Source: Escherichia phage vB_EcoM_SYGD1. From it: DNA of 64,000 nucleotides. Both the position numbers and the translations under genes were made by a program. The notes under the pieces were generated by a model. It ran no database searches, was not told the DNA's origin, and saw only the letters and a program-made list of their open reading frames with translations. Location of the stretch: the sequence record MW883059; one strand, 5' to 3'. Positions 523-32,312 of the stretch are shown in pieces (positions within the stretch are counted from its first letter, which is position 1; each line of letters opens with the position of its first letter).

Positions 523-842
523 TAATTGAGGCCTAGGTATAAGGTGACTTATACTTGTAATCTATCTAAACGGGGGACCTCTCTAGTAGACAATCCCGTG
601 CTAAATTGTAGGACTACCCTTTAATAATTTCATCAGGATTAGTTACTTACCGTGTAAAATCTGATAAATGGAATTGGTTCTACATAAATGCCTAACGACT
701 ATCCCTTTGGGGAGTAGGGTCAAGTGACTCGAAACGATAGACAACTTGCTTTAACAAGTTGAAGATATAGTCTGATCTGCATGGTGACATGCAGCTGGAT
801 ATAATTCCGGGGTAAGATTAACGACCTTATCTGAACATAATG
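523..842 (+). ncRNA. group I self-splicing intron in td (320 nt, endonuclease ORF missing)
   Basis: Exon 1 ends ...TTCTTGGGT, insert starts TAATTGAGGCC and ends ...CTGAACATAATG; removing 523-842 joins ...VDVFLG to LPFNIASY in frame; matches my recollection of the T4 td intron core. Confidence 0.85.
624..695 (+). pseudogene. 3' stub of intron-encoded homing endonuclease (I-TevI-like), rest of ORF deleted
   Basis: In-frame ...ISSGLVTYRVKSDKWNWFYINA followed by TAA inside the intron; no start codon and no GIY-YIG domain upstream. Confidence 0.6.
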
Positions 843-1154
843 CTTCCATTTAATATTGCATCATATGCTACGTTAGTTCATATTGTAGCTAAGATGTGTA
901 ATCTTATTCCGGGAGATTTGATATTTTCCGGTGGTAATACTCATATCTATATGAATCACGTAGAACAATGTAAAGAAATTTTGCGTCGTGAACCTAAAGA
1001 GCTTTGTGAACTGGTAATAGGCGGATTGCCTTATAAATTCCGCTATCTTTCTACTAAAGAACAATTGGAATACATTCTTAAACTCAGGCCTAAAGATTTC
1101 GTTCTCAAAGATTATCAGTCCCACGGCGTCTTGAAAGGAAAAATGGCGGTGTAA
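843..1154 (+). CDS. td: thymidylate synthase, exon 2
   Basis: LPFNIASYATLVHIVAKMCNLIPGDLIFSGGNTHIYMNHVEQ... to stop at 1152-1154; contiguous with exon 1 after splicing. Confidence 0.95.
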   Translation, partial: LPFNIASYATLVHIVAKMCNLIPGDLIFSGGNTHIYMNHVEQCKEILRREPKELCELVIGGLPYKFRYLSTKEQLEYILKLRPKDFVLKDYQSHGVLKGKMAV

Positions 1155-1177
1155 TTTTAATTTAATTGTGAGGATTT

Positions 1178-1441
1178 ATGATTTTACGATTTAAAGATAC
1201 TTCTGACGTTGTTCTTTTTACACTTCCTAATCCAAGTGAGTTAGAAGTTCCAGGACCAAATCAGCCTATTATCATTTATGGCAAAAAATATTATACTCAT
1301 AAAATGACTCGTGAGTATTTTGATAATAAAATTTCTACAGTTAAAACTTCTTCTGATTGTTACTATGATATTACTGTTTTAACGGAAAAACAATATGACG
1401 AATTATCACCGCGCGGGCCGTCTATGCCAGGTAGTGAATAA
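1178..1441 (+). CDS. hypothetical protein (position of T4 nrdA.2)
   Basis: 87-codon ORF, ATG preceded by GAGGA; 3' end overlaps next ORF by 47 nt. Confidence 0.6.
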
Positions 1442-1721
1442 ATATAAATCCGACTTTGATGTTAATATTCACCGTGGTACGTTTTGGGGAAATTACGTCG
1501 GTAAAGATGCTGGCAGCCGGGAGGCTGCCATTGAATTATTCAAAAAAGATTTTATACGTCGAATTAAATCCGGAGAAATAACTAAAGCACATTTAGAGCC
1601 TTTACGTGGAATGAGGCTAGGATGCACATGTAAACCAAAGCCGTGTCATGGTGATATAATAGCTCATATAGTTAACCGATTGTTTAAAGACGATTTTCAA
1701 GTTGAGGACTTATGCAATTAA
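1395..1721 (+). CDS. DUF4326-like protein (position of T4 nrdA.1)
   Basis: 108 aa with [14 protein letters not shown] and [15 protein letters not shown] motifs, the pattern I associate with DUF4326. Confidence 0.65.
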
Positions 1722-3976
1722 TTAATGTTATCAAAAGTAGTGGTGTTTCTCAGAGCTTTGACCCGCAAAAAATTATTAAAGTTTTATCTTGGGCAGCTGA
1801 AGGAACATCAGTAGATCCTTATGAATTATATGAAAATATTAAATCTTATCTCCGTGATGGAATGACAACTGATGATATTCAGACTATTGTCATTAAGGCC
1901 GCTGCGAATTCTATTTCGGTTGAAGAGCCTGATTATCAATATGTAGCTGCACGTTGTTTAATGTTCGCTCTTCGTAAGCATGTTTATGGGCAGTATGAAC
2001 CACGTTCATTTATTGACCATATTTCTTACTGTGTAAATGAAGGTAAATATGACCCTGAATTATTGTCAAAATATTCAGCAGAAGAAATTACATTTTTAGA
2101 ATCAAAAATTAAGCACGAGCGGGATATGGAATTTACTTATTCCGGGGCGATGCAATTAAAAGAAAAATATCTAGTTAAAGATAAAACCACTGGTCAAATT
2201 TATGAAACTCCACAGTTTGCATTTATGACTATTGGAATGGCATTGCATCAAGATGAACCTGTTGATAGATTAAAACATGTTATCCGTTTTTATGAAGCGG
2301 TATCTACTCGACAGATTTCATTACCAACTCCTATTATGGCTGGTTGCCGTACTCCAACTCGGCAGTTTAGTTCATGTGTTGTTATTGAGGCAGGCGATTC
2401 ACTGAAGTCTATCAATAAGGCTTCTGCTTCAATTGTTGAATATATCTCTAAACGCGCTGGAATTGGTATTAACGTTGGTATGATTCGTGCTGAAGGTTCT
2501 AAGATTGGCATGGGTGAAGTACGCCATACTGGTGTTATTCCTTTTTGGAAACATTTTCAGACTGCTGTTAAATCATGCTCACAGGGTGGAATTCGTGGCG
2601 GCGCTGCTACTGCTTATTATCCTATTTGGCATTTGGAAGTTGAAAATCTTCTTGTTTTGAAAAATAACAAAGGCGTAGAAGAAAACCGTATCCGTCATAT
2701 GGATTATGGCGTCCAGTTGAATGATTTGATGATGGAACGTTTTGGAAAGAACGACTACATTACTTTGTTTAGTCCGCATGAAATGGGTGGCGAGCTTTAT
2801 TATTCTTATTTTAAAGACCAAGACCGTTTCCGCGAATTATACGAAGCAGCAGAAAAAGACCCTAATATTCGCAAAAAGCGTATTAAAGCCCGTGAACTAT
2901 TTGAATTACTCATGACTGAACGATCAGGAACAGCAAGGATTTATGTGCAGTTCATTGATAATACGAATAATTATACTCCGTTTATTCGTGAAAAGGCACC
3001 TATTCGTCAGAGTAACTTGTGTTGTGAAATTGCTATTCCAACAAATGATGTGAATAGTCCTGATGCTGAAATTGGATTGTGTACTCTCTCTGCATTCGTA
3101 CTAGATAATTTTGACTGGCAAGACCAAGATAAAATTAATGAATTGGCAGAAGTTCAAGTTCGTGCTCTTGATAATCTGTTGGATTACCAAGGATATCCAG
3201 TTCCTGAAGCAGAAAAAGCTAAAAAGCGTCGTAACCTCGGTGTAGGTGTTACCAACTATGCAGCTTGGCTGGCAAGTAACTTTGCTTCTTATGAAGATGC
3301 TAATGATTTAACACATGAACTATTTGAGAGATTACAGTATGGACTCATTAAAGCATCCATTAAGCTCGCAAAAGAAAAAGGACCTTGCGAATATTATTCA
3401 GACACTCGTTGGTCTCGAGGCGAATTACCTATCGACTGGTACAATAAAAAGATTGACCAAATCGCAGCTCCAAAATACGTTTGTGACTGGTCGGCGCTGC
3501 GGGAAGACCTTAAGCTCTTTGGCATCCGTAATAGCACATTATCAGCACTTATGCCATGTGAGTCATCTTCCCAAGTTTCTAACAGTACAAACGGTATCGA
3601 GCCTCCACGTGGACCAGTCTCTGTTAAAGAATCAAAAGAGGGTTCCTTTAATCAAGTCGTGCCCAATATTGAGCATAACATAGACCTATATGATTATACA
3701 TGGAAATTAGCTAAGAAAGGTAATAAACCTTATCTTACGCAGGTAGCTATTATGCTGAAATGGGTATGTCAATCAGCTTCAGCGAATACATACTATGACC
3801 CGCAGATTTTTCCAAAAGGAAAGGTTCCAATGTCAATAATGATTGATGACATGTTATACGGATGGTATTATGGCATTAAAAATTTCTATTATCATAATAC
3901 CCGTGATGGTTCTGGTACTGATGATTATGAAATAGAAACTCCTAAAGCCGACGATTGTGCAGCGTGTAAATTGTAA
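1712..3976 (+). CDS. nrdA: ribonucleoside-diphosphate reductase large subunit (class Ia)
   Basis: 754 aa; GAGGA RBS; active-site NLCCEIA; C-terminal redox Cys pair ...ADDCAACKL. Confidence 0.95.
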   Translation: MQLINVIKSSGVSQSFDPQKIIKVLSWAAEGTSVDPYELYENIKSYLRDGMTTDDIQTIVIKAAANSISVEEPDYQYVAARCLMFALRKHVYGQYEPRSFIDHISYCVNEGKYDPELLSKYSAEEITFLESKIKHERDMEFTYSGAMQLKEKYLVKDKTTGQIYETPQFAFMTIGMALHQDEPVDRLKHVIRFYEAVSTRQISLPTPIMAGCRTPTRQFSSCVVIEAGDSLKSINKASASIVEYISKRAGIGINVGMIRAEGSKIGMGEVRHTGVIPFWKHFQTAVKSCSQGGIRGGAATAYYPIWHLEVENLLVLKNNKGVEENRIRHMDYGVQLNDLMMERFGKNDYITLFSPHEMGGELYYSYFKDQDRFRELYEAAEKDPNIRKKRIKARELFELLMTERSGTARIYVQFIDNTNNYTPFIREKAPIRQSNLCCEIAIPTNDVNSPDAEIGLCTLSAFVLDNFDWQDQDKINELAEVQVRALDNLLDYQGYPVPEAEKAKKRRNLGVGVTNYAAWLASNFASYEDANDLTHELFERLQYGLIKASIKLAKEKGPCEYYSDTRWSRGELPIDWYNKKIDQIAAPKYVCDWSALREDLKLFGIRNSTLSALMPCESSSQVSNSTNGIEPPRGPVSVKESKEGSFNQVVPNIEHNIDLYDYTWKLAKKGNKPYLTQVAIMLKWVCQSASANTYYDPQIFPKGKVPMSIMIDDMLYGWYYGIKNFYYHNTRDGSGTDDYEIETPKADDCAACKL

Positions 3977-4707
3977 TGAATTATCAAAAAATCTATAATG
4001 ACCTAATTTCCCGAGCTCAGGCTCGGGAACATTTATCCGAGTATAAAGAGACACATCATATAGTCCCTAAATGCATGGGAGGTTCTGATGATAAAGAAAA
4101 TTTAGTTGAATTAACAGCTAGAGAACATTTTATAGCGCATCTATTACTATGCAAGATAAATGAAGGCCATTTTGGTCTTGCCTCTGCGTTAACGTTAATG
4201 GCAACAGATAAAGCTGGTAATAGAATTAATAACAGATTGTATAGCTTGCACAGAAAATTATTTGCTAAAGCTAATTCTGATTTCTTTAAGAAATATTGGA
4301 AAAATAATCCTCATCCTAGAGGAATGTTAGGCAAGCATCATAAAAACGAAACTAAACAACATGTATCAAACGTGAATAGGTATGCATGCCCATCTATCGA
4401 AATACATAAATTCTCATTAGATGGGGATTTCATAGAAACCTTTCACTCTATTGCCGCAGCGTCCAGGTCAGTTAATGGAAACGGGTCAAATATCAAATAT
4501 TGTGCTGAGGGTAAATTTCAATATGCCTATGGATTTCGATGGGCATATCAACTTGATGCAAAGTTTGACAAAATACAACCAAGAGATTATAAAGGAATCC
4601 GCGGTAAGAAATGGATTAATAATGGAAGTGAATGCACGCTTATAGGTAAAGATGATATTATACCGCCAGGTTGGAAACGCGGCAGAATTTTAAAGAGGAA
4701 AAATTAA
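3976..4707 (+). CDS. HNH homing endonuclease, free-standing (mobE-like, between nrdA and nrdB)
   Basis: 243 aa; start overlaps nrdA stop (TAATG); HNH motif HHIVPKCMGGSDDKENLVELTAREHFIAH. Confidence 0.8.
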   Translation: MNYQKIYNDLISRAQAREHLSEYKETHHIVPKCMGGSDDKENLVELTAREHFIAHLLLCKINEGHFGLASALTLMATDKAGNRINNRLYSLHRKLFAKANSDFFKKYWKNNPHPRGMLGKHHKNETKQHVSNVNRYACPSIEIHKFSLDGDFIETFHSIAAASRSVNGNGSNIKYCAEGKFQYAYGFRWAYQLDAKFDKIQPRDYKGIRGKKWINNGSECTLIGKDDIIPPGWKRGRILKRKN

Positions 4708-5885
4708 TGTCTACAGTTTTTAATACAAATCCAGTTGATGTTTTAAAAGAACCTATGTTTTTTGGTTCAGGTCTTGGTATTGCGCGTTATGATATTCAAC
4801 GTCATAAAGTTTTTGAAGATTTGACCGAAAAGCAATTGTCGTTTTTCTGGCGGCCTGAAGAAGTAAACTTAATGATGGATGCTGCGCAGTTTAATAAGCT
4901 TCCTCAGTATCAGCAAAATATTTTTACTAACAACCTGAAGTATCAATCACTTTTGGATAGCATTCAGGGTCGTGCGCCGTCTGCTGTACTTATGTCATTA
5001 ATTTCAGACCCAAGCCTTGATACATGGGTTGCTACATGGACTTTTAGTGAAACTATTCATAGTCGTTCATATACTCATATCATGCGAAATCTTTATACTG
5101 ATCCGTCAAAGGTATTTGATGAGATTGTATTAGATGAAGCTATTATGAAACGTGCTGAATCCATTGGACGTTATTATGATGACGTTCTGATTAAAACTCG
5201 TTATTGGGAAAACGCTAAAGCTGCTACAGCATTTAAATTTGAAATTAATGCAGACGAAGACGTTATTGAAGATGCTATTGAGCATGAAATGTATTGGAAA
5301 CGTGAACTAATGCGCTCTCTTTACCTCTGCCTGCACGTAATCAACGCATTGGAAGCTATTCGTTTTTATGTATCTTTCGCATGTACCTTTAACTTCCATA
5401 AAAACATGGAAATCATGGAAGGTAATGCCAAGATTATGAAGTTCATTGCGCGTGATGAGCAGCTTCATCTTAAAGGCACCCAATATATTATTCGTCAGCT
5501 TCAATCCGGTACTGATGGCGATGAATGGGTTAAAATTGCTCAAGAGTGTGAACAAGAAGCAGTTGATATTTTCATGGAAGTTAACCGCCAAGAAAAAGAT
5601 TGGGCAGTTCATTTATTTAAAGATGGAGATGTTCCTGGATTAAATACAAATAGCATGTGGAGCTTTATTGATTACTTAACTGTATCTCGTATGAAACAGT
5701 GTGGTCTTCCATGCCCAATTACCGATGCTCCGGTTAAACATCCATATCCTTGGATTCGTGAATACCTTAATTCTGATAATGTTCAATCCGCGCCGCAAGA
5801 AGTAGAACTGTCATCTTACCTTGTAGCACAGATTGATAATGATGTTGATGATAAAGTTATGATGAGTTTTAAAAAATATTTTTAA
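4707..5885 (+). CDS. nrdB: ribonucleotide reductase small subunit, uninterrupted (no intron)
   Basis: 392 aa from ATG 4707 (MSTVFNTNPVDVLKEPMFF...); continuous ORF typical of NrdB. Confidence 0.9.
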   Translation: MSTVFNTNPVDVLKEPMFFGSGLGIARYDIQRHKVFEDLTEKQLSFFWRPEEVNLMMDAAQFNKLPQYQQNIFTNNLKYQSLLDSIQGRAPSAVLMSLISDPSLDTWVATWTFSETIHSRSYTHIMRNLYTDPSKVFDEIVLDEAIMKRAESIGRYYDDVLIKTRYWENAKAATAFKFEINADEDVIEDAIEHEMYWKRELMRSLYLCLHVINALEAIRFYVSFACTFNFHKNMEIMEGNAKIMKFIARDEQLHLKGTQYIIRQLQSGTDGDEWVKIAQECEQEAVDIFMEVNRQEKDWAVHLFKDGDVPGLNTNSMWSFIDYLTVSRMKQCGLPCPITDAPVKHPYPWIREYLNSDNVQSAPQEVELSSYLVAQIDNDVDDKVMMSFKKYF

Positions 5886-30097: not shown

Positions 30098-30113
30098 AAG
30101 GGCCGAAGCCCTT
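30098..30113 (-). promoter_or_regulatory. GC hairpin between the HNH gene stop and the uvsW.1 RBS
   Basis: AAGGGC-CGAA-GCCCTT overlapping the HNH stop codon. Confidence 0.4.
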
Positions 30114-30804
30114 ATAAATTAACTGTTTTTCTAAGTATTCTTAGTTTGTACATTGATAATCCAGTAGCTTTAGAAGCATCTTTCATGCATTTATACTTAA
30201 CACCATTTACTTCTATAGGTTTAGCAGCTGGGTTATTAGCTCCTGAATTATCTGGCATGTTATCTTTAATTTTCTGAATAGATTTAGCGGAATGTTTCCT
30301 TCCATACATGCCATTATTTTTACCTGATTGATTGATAGAATGCAATCTTTTAGCTTCTTCAGTCCATTTTGTTGGGTTCATTCTTTTAGTTTTACTAATT
30401 TTACTTCCCCACGTAATTGGACGATTTTTCATGAGTTTTGACATATATTGTTTATGTTCTTCCGTATGGTGTTTTCCGTAAAATGGATTACCTTCACCTG
30501 ATTGAAGTTTTGCCATTTTACGACGTTCCCAGGCGTAAGATTTATTAACGTGTCTTTCATGAGTATTTGAATTCATTCCCATACATATAACGGCTTTAAT
30601 TATACCGTAATGGTTTGGATGAATTTTAGCTAAAAGTTTATGAGCTATAAAATGCTCTTCAGCTGTTAGTTCTACCAAATTACACTTATCATCTGTACCA
30701 CCCATACATCTAGGAATTATATGATGAGTTTCAGTGTATCCATTAAGGCGAGCCCGATTCTGGGCTCTATTAATTAAATTATCATATATTAATTTATAAT
30801 TCAA
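30112..30804 (-). CDS. HNH homing endonuclease, free-standing, inserted between uvsW and uvsW.1; TTG start
   Basis: 230 aa; HNH motif HHIIPRCMGGTDDKCNLVELTAEEHFIAH; TTG start 7 nt after GAGG and overlapping uvsW TGA. Confidence 0.75.
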   Translation of the reverse strand: MNYKLIYDNLINRAQNRARLNGYTETHHIIPRCMGGTDDKCNLVELTAEEHFIAHKLLAKIHPNHYGIIKAVICMGMNSNTHERHVNKSYAWERRKMAKLQSGEGNPFYGKHHTEEHKQYMSKLMKNRPITWGSKISKTKRMNPTKWTEEAKRLHSINQSGKNNGMYGRKHSAKSIQKIKDNMPDNSGANNPAAKPIEVNGVKYKCMKDASKATGLSMYKLRILRKTVNL

Positions 30805-32312
30805 AGTTTAACCTCTTTCATCACATAATTAAACTTCTCATCAGCATAACGCTGAATACGATCAAGTCCATGTTTTAAAAGATAGTTTAAATGCGAGTAT
30901 TTTTTAGAAGATGTTTTTGATTTAGAAACTACGCCCGCGTCATCTATGAGGTCCCAGACTGTTGCGATTGTTTTAGAACCATGCTTACGTAATACGCGAC
31001 CTATTGTTTGCAATACAATAATTTTAGATTTAACGCCGTGCGCTAAAACAACGTGATGCAGATTTTTAACTGAAATACCAGTAGAAAATACACCATAACT
31101 AGCTACTATAATTATTCCTTTACCGTTTTCAGCTAAGGTTTTCATTATGTTTCGAGTTTCGGTATCAACTTCCCCTGATACGTAATAAACTTTATCGTAT
31201 TCATTTTTAATTAAATCGAAAATAGCTTTACCATGTGATACATGCTTAAACATGACAAAAGCGTTTTCATCTTTTTGCGCAAGTTTAATAGCTAATTTAG
31301 CGATCCATTTATTTCTTTTACTGAGCCCAGTAATAATTTTTATTTCTTCTTGGTAAGTTTTTCCCTTTAATTTAGTAGTGAACTCATCAGGATAACGAAG
31401 AAAAATACTATTAATTTTTAACTCAGTTACTTGTCCATCTTCCATTAATTTAGAAGTCGTTACTGGCTTAAATATTTCACCAAACATTCCAACATACTGC
31501 ATGATATTAGCTTTGCCATCACGTAATGAACCTGATAGACCAAATTTGAACATGCAGTTATTTAAACCTGATATAATAGATGAAATACTTTTTCCTGTAG
31601 CAAGATGGCATTCATCATTCATCATCATTCCAAATTGTGAAAACCATTCTTTTGGTTGTTTTACTACAGTTTGCCATGTACCAACAATTACCGGTGCATC
31701 ATTTTTATATTTATCATCTTTTGATGCTCCGCCACCAATTTTCTTTATCATTGCATGACTGAATAAACGATAATCAACAAAGTCATCAGCCATCTGAGTT
31801 GTCAGAGCAGTTGTTGGAACAATGATAAGAATTTTACCTTCATAATTTTCCAAATAATAACGTGCAAGCAAAGCTTGAATTAAAGATTTACCTGCGGATG
31901 TTGGAAGATTAAGAATTCTACGACGATTAACTAATCCTTCGAACACTGCATCTTTTTGATACCAATGCGGTTCAATTCTTTTATTTCCTGAATAGATTTC
32001 TAACTTAGAAAGCCATTCATCAAAATCTTTTCTTGATAATTCTTCTTTTTCGTTAATTTGTGGGTCAATCCAGGCTTTATAGCCAAAGTTATCACAGAAC
32101 TTTTTAATTTGCCCGACTAAGCCGAACGGAAGAAGGCGATTATAATCTAAAAGACGGATTCGTCCATCCCAGTGACCATATTTGTATTTCGGATTAAAAC
32201 GATACCCATCAGCTTCAAAGCTAAAGAAATCACGGAGTTCATGAAATGTACTTTCTTCACAATCAATTCTCACGTGACTAAAATCATAAAAATGTACTTT
32301 AATGTCAGTCAT
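30801..32312 (-). CDS. uvsW: UvsW DNA/RNA helicase (SF2)
   Basis: 503 aa; MTDIKVHFYDFSHVRIDCEE...; Walker A LPTSAGKS, DExH-like NDECH. Confidence 0.9.
   Translation of the reverse strand: MTDIKVHFYDFSHVRIDCEESTFHELRDFFSFEADGYRFNPKYKYGHWDGRIRLLDYNRLLPFGLVGQIKKFCDNFGYKAWIDPQINEKEELSRKDFDEWLSKLEIYSGNKRIEPHWYQKDAVFEGLVNRRRILNLPTSAGKSLIQALLARYYLENYEGKILIIVPTTALTTQMADDFVDYRLFSHAMIKKIGGGASKDDKYKNDAPVIVGTWQTVVKQPKEWFSQFGMMMNDECHLATGKSISSIISGLNNCMFKFGLSGSLRDGKANIMQYVGMFGEIFKPVTTSKLMEDGQVTELKINSIFLRYPDEFTTKLKGKTYQEEIKIITGLSKRNKWIAKLAIKLAQKDENAFVMFKHVSHGKAIFDLIKNEYDKVYYVSGEVDTETRNIMKTLAENGKGIIIVASYGVFSTGISVKNLHHVVLAHGVKSKIIVLQTIGRVLRKHGSKTIATVWDLIDDAGVVSKSKTSSKKYSHLNYLLKHGLDRIQRYADEKFNYVMKEVKL

Follow-up and report, generated by a model that had tools for sequence, protein, structure and literature searches.

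An RB3-type mobE allele at the nrdA/nrdB junction of a T4-like phage with an intronless nrdB

The gene that separates nrdA from nrdB in Escherichia phage vB_EcoM_SYGD1 is, as judged from its sequence, an mobE allele of the RB3 type, a putative free-standing and modular HNH homing endonuclease gene that resembles I-HmuI. Its position beside an intronless nrdB is an ordinary and already known arrangement, shared with T6 and with dozens of T4-like phages whose genomes have been sequenced. As an overall explanation we favour, with moderate confidence, an RB3-type mobE allele that homes into empty junctions, together with a separate nrdB intron that is absent from this lineage. A single point is mildly new: one should not assume that the target of the T4 enzyme is also that of the RB3-type allele.

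The nrdA-mobE-nrdB locus and its HNH gene

The window, by which we mean the whole 64,000-nucleotide stretch of DNA that we analysed (sequence record MW883059), represents the early region of a T4-like phage (Tequatrovirus); the closest genomes in the database match it at ~97% identity over 20 kb. Genes follow each other in the order td, nrdA.2, nrdA.1, nrdA, a 243-codon open reading frame (ORF), nrdB, denA and rnlA. nrdA (1712-3976, + strand) ends with the stop codon TAA at 3974-3976. The 243-codon ORF (3976-4707, + strand; 243 aa), which we assign to the RB3-type mobE allele, starts with ATG at 3976 and stops with TAA at 4705-4707, and nrdB (4707-5885, + strand) starts with ATG at 4707 and runs uninterrupted for 392 codons. 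Both the nrdA/mobE and the mobE/nrdB junction consist of a 1-nt overlap with the sequence TAATG. We verified all coordinates of this HNH gene, and its TAATG overlaps at both ends, as an earlier note made from the letters of this DNA had them. That note had also described nrdB as one continuous 392-codon ORF, which was borne out by the ORF at 4707-5885, by a match of NrdB to the Pfam family Ribonuc_red_sm (E = 8.8e-37) and by an alignment in which the window nrdB was codon-for-codon colinear with the intronless nrdB of T2 and KIT03.

The ORF has the layout of the MobE class: it lies between nrdA and nrdB, its start overlaps the nrdA stop as UAAUG, and it appears to be promoterless. Sequence inspection found no Shine-Dalgarno sequence upstream of the ATG at 3976; the Shine-Dalgarno sequence of nrdB (AGAGGA) is inside the 3' end of mobE. 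A scan for promoters and terminators returned no candidate above the shuffle expectation. A possible MotA box within the allele (cacGCTTat, ~4633-4641, with TATTAT 12 nt downstream) was a weak match by eye, and we do not claim it as a middle promoter of nrdB. The rule used in the terminator scan missed the known mobE hairpin because its U-tract is short. This hairpin (4008-4029, + strand) has a 9-bp stem and a 4-nt loop (TTCCCGAGC-TCAG-GCTCGGGAA), folds at -16.7 kcal/mol and is identical to the internal hairpin of T4 mobE that was mapped as a terminator (PMC2790892); it may also act as a terminator in the window phage. The roles of the UAAUG overlap and of the hairpin have been described in T4 (PMC2790892, PMC2988022), and we infer a similar mode of expression here. 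mobE, with neither a promoter nor a ribosome-binding site of its own, would rely for its expression on termination-reinitiation at UAAUG within the nrdA message, and the internal terminator would probably damp that expression, as in T4.

The earlier note had called the gene mobE-like, and comparison with T4 agrees, as the first 165-170 nt, the TAATG junction with nrdA and the internal hairpin are ~96% identical to T4 mobE. The 243-aa protein matched PHROG 655 (E = 2.4e-57). Pfam placed NUMOD1 at residues 147-177, above the cut-off (E = 1.1e-5), and HNH at residues 18-44, below it (20.4 bits against a curated cut-off of 21.4). The HNH catalytic motif (residues 24-55, KETHHIVPKCMGGSDDKENLVELTAREHFIAH; 4045-4140, + strand) aligned with that of T4 MobE with two conservative changes only (V30I and K32R), and it also aligned with the solved HNH of a group II intron maturase. 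Residues H27, H28, N42, H51 and H55 were invariant in 38 homologues, and all of them are present in the window protein. The codon of His55 (4138-4140) is the end of the part that is common with T4 mobE. From there, 4141-4704 (+ strand) encodes a putative allele-specific DNA-binding part made up of linker helices, a NUMOD1-type domain (4414-4506) and a C-terminal W..NG..IP.GW..GR module, and the DNA of this region is unrelated to T4 and T6 mobE. Because a sequence search of the PDB gave a marginal HNH match alone, we used structure prediction. The best structural match of the predicted window protein was I-HmuI (PDB 1U3E), an intron-encoded HNH nicking endonuclease of the Bacillus phage SPO1, and the model suggests that both share a plan in which an N-terminal HNH precedes a series of small DNA-binding modules, of the kind of NUMOD-type helices or a helix-turn-helix-like module.

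Alleles of mobE and their distribution

Three mobE alleles (T4, T6/LZ7 and RB3/window) occupy the same spot, and in a protein alignment they are nearly identical through His55 and then divergent. When the window was compared with T4 by blastn, identity was 96% from td to the first ~170 nt of mobE (620-4145), and no similarity was found thereafter until nrdB. Homology to T4 MobE does not extend over the whole length: codons 1-55 are common, and the other 188 codons are without DNA similarity and differ in domain content. By these comparisons the window gene counts as one of the alleles of the mobE locus, but its DNA-binding part is not orthologous to that of T4.

T4 MobE (PMC2790892) and the window gene are alike in locus, nrdA 3'-end haplotype, UAAUG coupling, internal hairpin and codons 1-55 (~96% DNA identity), but they differ after His55, where T4 MobE (232 aa in re-sequenced T4) has NUMOD3 repeats and a CPHC motif and the window protein (243 aa) has NUMOD1 and the C-terminal module. 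The T6/LZ7-type gene shares the locus, HNH core and left flank with the window gene, but has 213 aa, a third middle segment, a T4-type C-terminus and a T4-like nrdB 5' block; in the alignment, NUMOD3-like repeats and the CPHC motif were found in both the T4 and the T6 alleles. By contrast, the mobE genes of RB3, RB5, RB6, RB7, RB9 and RB10 (KM606994-KM606999, NC_025419) are like that of the window in length (243 aa), protein sequence (99% identity), position and TAATG overlaps at both ends. What sets these phages apart from the window is a 1091-nt nrdB intron with an intact I-TevIII and an nrdB that is strongly different from the window nrdB in nt 481-660.

The T4 reference (NC_000866; locus L001, 6717-7417) splits mobE into 'mobE' of 141 aa and 'nrdB.1' of 83 aa, and both pieces match consecutive parts of PHROG 655. 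Re-sequenced T4 (MT984581; locus L054, 1300-1998), T4T, RB55 and RB59 show a 2-nt difference and have one 699-nt mobE of 232 aa. This single ORF in the re-sequenced records rules out the 141-aa 'mobE' with nrdB.1 as a shorter form of the enzyme. Among genes annotated as mobE there are no fewer than three alleles, which differ in their DNA-binding domains, and the target mapped for T4 should not be carried over to the RB3-type allele.

Aeh1 MobE and Hef (phage U5) are, like the window mobE, products of endonuclease genes that invaded the nrdA/nrdB neighbourhood of T4-like phages. Unlike the window gene, Aeh1 mobE lies inside nrdA, which it splits, and Hef is set apart from mobE by its description as unrelated. 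We also noted two related contigs from IMG/VR (L034 and L025) with ~1.6 kb between nrdA and nrdB that lacks similarity to the window HNH protein and may hold another endonuclease cassette, for instance hef. nrdB of L034 is also interrupted, and it probably carries the intron.

The segment specific to the RB3-type allele was present in 57 phage records, 53 of them at 92.7-97.3% DNA identity and four, which are Mosigvirus-like, at ~75%. In 42 of the 57 rows the arrangement was that of the window, with the gene in one piece and an intronless nrdB. A further 11 rows had the same allele together with the 1091-nt nrdB intron and full-length I-TevIII (RB3, RB5, RB6, RB7, RB9, RB10, vb_GEC_SH_GT, G2540-3 and pSe_SNUABM_01, plus RefSeq copies). 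The gene is annotated as mobE in RB3 and RB5-RB10, and pairwise codon comparison found zero DNA differences between the window mobE and the gene of Shigella phage ESh29. Full-length homologues at 47-96% identity occur in phages of Yersinia, Citrobacter, Salmonella and Vibrio, the more distant ones at 47-77%. Where the context was visible, homologues at 57-67% identity were found at the same junction and with the same 1-nt overlap, in phages with an NrdB that is merely 78-81% identical. A scan of IMG/VR with NrdB, which we used for cross-genus context only, yielded 34 loci, mostly from other genera and with one close carrier (L006).

The empty junction, in which nrdA and nrdB are separated by a 51-nt spacer, is the majority state: it was found in ~24 of 40 rows sampled at even spacing from 605 related records, which corresponds to ~360 of ~605 (~60%). 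Presence of the gene is polymorphic, with ~360 empty sites and 53 sites with the allele, and a block of flanking sequence is linked to it.

The nrdB intron

T4 has mobE between nrdA and nrdB and an nrdB intron that bears I-TevIII, as the earlier note stated and as we saw in the T4 reference. The window nrdB has no group I intron after the T of the Cys codon at nrdB nt 676; the exon junctions of T4 and RB3 map to T5382/G5383 (+ strand), where the insertion site is unoccupied. A search with Rfam over the 64-kb window found a single group I intron, in td, and no match in nrdB. Aligning nrdB around the intron site, a check that the earlier note had suggested, gave a continuous sequence colinear with T2 and no intron-like discontinuity. 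The flank of the insertion site differs silently from T4 at two positions, -5 and -2. The positions cleaved by I-TevIII, -14 and -16 (PMC1865063), are unchanged in the window nrdB. On this reading, the intron is a mobile element in its own right, and nrdB is without it because the window lineage does not carry that element.

Across the related records, the nrdB intron was found in 129, of which 85 had full-length I-TevIII. Its frequency was 21% among carriers of the RB3-type allele (11 of 53) and ~21% among related records (~129 of ~605), a comparison that is rough, since the raw record counts contain near-identical isolates as well as GenBank/RefSeq duplicates. RB3-type mobE and the nrdB intron look independent, with no visible association between them. 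An empty junction together with the intron also exists (AV120, vB_EcoM_F1 and phiD1), and all four combinations of junction and intron state occur naturally, so that the absence of the intron beside the presence of the endonuclease, which the earlier note had taken as a telling combination, is not diagnostic.

The same note had proposed that the HNH enzyme can mobilize itself or a neighbouring intron. For the T4 allele this is known biology, as homing by MobE and its mobilization of the nrdB intron in trans were published in 2009 (PMC2790892). T4 mobE was inherited at about twice its input frequency in crosses of T4 and T2 (PMC2790892, Wilson & Edgell 2009), and the defunct T4 nrdB intron was co-inherited only with intact mobE; progeny of T4 and T2 with mobE but without I-TevIII were also recovered (PMC2790892). 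For the RB3-type allele we found no hint that gene and intron travel together. The introns beside this allele carry full-length I-TevIII, which is active in RB3 and homes on its own (PMC1865063).

Exon 1 of nrdB is 84% identical to T4. This was considered as an intron-linked boundary and ruled out, since the value comes from T4's own block at nt 61-180 and a hypervariable segment at nt 481-660. We observed within that segment a hypervariable cassette (window 5187-5321, nrdB nt 481-615, NrdB residues ~161-205) of which there are at least six unrelated versions with length differences of 9-12 nt, shared among phages irrespective of their mobE or intron state. The version in the window (AKAATAFKFEINADEDVIEDAIEHEMYW) matched 0 of 21 other aligned nrdB sequences.

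td of the window is interrupted by a 320-nt group I intron (523-842, with exons at ~391-522 and 843-1154; Rfam RF00028 match at 513-794, 70.3 bits, E = 8e-16). It has no endonuclease ORF, whereas the T4 td intron is 1016 nt long and encodes I-TevI; the I-TevI segment of ~690 nt is absent from the window. The phage combines an endonuclease-less td intron with an intronless nrdB.

Linkage block, likely target and selection

We compared 10 carriers with 12 empty-site phages, which are not phylogenetically independent, and found that the 3' end of nrdA (3850-3976, + strand) travels with mobE as a haplotype block. At positions -27, -17, -14, -12, -3 and -1 from the nrdA stop, one base was present in 10/10 carriers and absent from 12/12 empties; at -24, carriers had C or T and 12/12 empties had A; and a looser block from -125 to -99 was different in 10 of the 12 empties. 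Over the final 180 nt of nrdA, net divergence between carriers and empties was 0.045-0.118; further upstream it was ~0. The carrier bases are common to T4 and T6 mobE carriers. They include non-synonymous changes in the redox-active tail of NrdA (3950-3976), whose sequence is DDCAACKL in every mobE carrier, whichever of the three alleles it has, and EDCSSCKL in 12/12 empties; these tail differences may hitch-hike with the mobE insertion or protect it. Beyond nrdA, the 51-nt spacer is replaced in carriers, and codon 2 of nrdB differs between the groups (TCT versus AGC) in 9 of 10 carriers. The exception, Aplg8, is a carrier with the empty-type codon, so this difference is not required. Between nt 7 and 480 of nrdB, no carrier-specific base was found among the 10 carriers and 12 empties. 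Other nrdB positions that passed the threshold (nt 799, 800, 804 and 834) were weak and far downstream, and were given no weight.

The earlier note had the enzyme target nrdB-proximal sequence. Such a target is mapped for the T4 allele only, with MobE nicks at nrdB nt 122-126 on the non-coding strand (PMC2790892); carriers of the RB3-type allele have an unrelated DNA-binding region and keep a T2-type nick site, and the claim is not supported for them. The equivalent positions in the window (4828-4832, - strand) are of the T2 type (E41 GAA and K42 AAG, 4827-4832). Around the nick site (nrdB nt 96-140), the window differs from T2 at 4 positions in ~45 nt, compared with more than 13 for T4, and over nrdB nt 100-160 the sequence of the carrier Sf23 shows no difference from T2. 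An enzyme that cut T2-type sequence would cut its own genome, so the T4 nick site is unlikely to be the target of the RB3-type enzyme. As the HNH core and left flank are common to the T4 and T6 alleles but the DNA-binding region is different, the recognition site is expected to differ from that of T4 MobE. The asymmetric nrdA block and the unrelated DNA-binding domain point to the nrdA end, the spacer or the nrdB start. The target of the RB3-type enzyme is probably at the junction, most likely in the nrdA end or the spacer, and not at the T4 site inside nrdB. The nrdA block may itself be a relic of the original insertion instead of a pointer to the target, because the T4 and T6 alleles share it and yet the T4 enzyme nicks in nrdB.

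Homing of the RB3-type allele would proceed as follows. In a mixed infection with a relative that has the empty 51-nt junction, the enzyme would nick or cut the relative near the junction, and recombinational repair from the carrier genome would bring in mobE and, with it, the terminal ~30-125 nt of nrdA and the initial nrdB codons. We more tentatively entertain a wider scheme, which is possible although we would not rely on it: the T4, T6 and RB3/window alleles would be a series formed by swaps of DNA-binding modules behind a fixed HNH cassette and left flank, the RB3-type enzyme would recognize the nrdA 3' end or spacer, and a T4-type phage could nick the window nrdB, which keeps the T2-type site for T4 MobE, and replace the allele. 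If different targets at one locus were true, the junction would be a convenient natural system for specificity change by module exchange; if a T4-type allele could replace an RB3-type one, endonuclease alleles would compete for one locus.

We consider it unlikely that the RB3-type enzyme also nicks nrdB at ~nt 122-126 and that carriers escape self-cutting because of a few silent changes or because their mobE is expressed late and at a low level. Such a shared target would fit the catalytic domain and left flank held in common with T4 mobE, as well as the FFWRPEE-coding block, which was proposed as the binding site (PMC2790892) and is conserved in all phages compared. RB3 was, moreover, pooled with other mobE-positive phages, some of which keep AAG at codon 42 (PMC2790892). 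However, the DNA-binding part is unrelated to that of T4, Sf23 carries the T2 sequence across the site, the four silent differences of the window also vary among empties, and nrdB nt 7-480 holds zero carrier-specific bases. We note that in some RB3-type carriers (Aplg8, locus L041, 631-1377; IME537, locus L045) nrdB nt 1-150 contains patches that resemble T6 or PST, and that the empty-site phage PST carries a T6-like patch at the T4 MobE nick region; these patches indicate that the nrdB 5' end is a mosaic independent of the junction state.

Selection on mobE was estimated from nine carriers of two sub-lineages. dN/dS was 0.07-0.12, at dS up to 0.19, in both the HNH and the DNA-binding parts. 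Nine of the 10 carriers compared had a full-length ORF, and in Aplg8 a 1-nt deletion yields 248 aa and an overlap with nrdB. HNH catalytic residues, for which the earlier note had asked whether any were mutated, are all intact (H27, H28, N42, H51 and H55). With these residues in place and dN/dS at ~0.1, the window mobE looks functional. Cleavage by T4 MobE was never shown in vitro (PMC2790892); from the intact sequence we infer that the RB3-type allele encodes an active enzyme.

Purifying selection is not decisive, because a co-opted phage function would show the same. The gene could be domesticated or have a dual role, being kept because it benefits the phage by excluding the markers of competitors or by tuning the nrdA/nrdB ratio through terminator and coupling. 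A dN/dS of ~0.1 over the whole ORF would suit this, as would the persistence of homologues at the same junction in several genera, the embedding of the nrdB ribosome-binding site and a conserved hairpin in mobE, and the established exclusion of markers by T-even homing endonucleases. Yet ~60% of close relatives have no gene at the site and grow normally, three interchangeable alleles at one site and their sporadic distribution are what a mobile element produces, and an actively homing endonuclease is also expected to be under purifying selection; a role of this kind is therefore doubtful. That the gene is an inactive remnant like I-TevIII of T4, its ORF intact by chance or through recent arrival, is very improbable, for although the Pfam HNH score is just below the curated cut-off and MobE activity has proved difficult to show in vitro, none of the invariant HNH residues is missing, the single exception to a full-length ORF is a deletion that lengthens it, and the alleles have diverged (dS up to 0.19) under a dN/dS of ~0.1.

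The window holds a second free-standing mob-type HNH gene (30112-30804, - strand), with a TTG start, 230 aa and NUMOD3-like repeats. It abuts the 3' end of a uvsW-like helicase gene (30801-32312, - strand), and across the first 133 residues its protein shares 47% identity with the HNH protein encoded between nrdA and nrdB.
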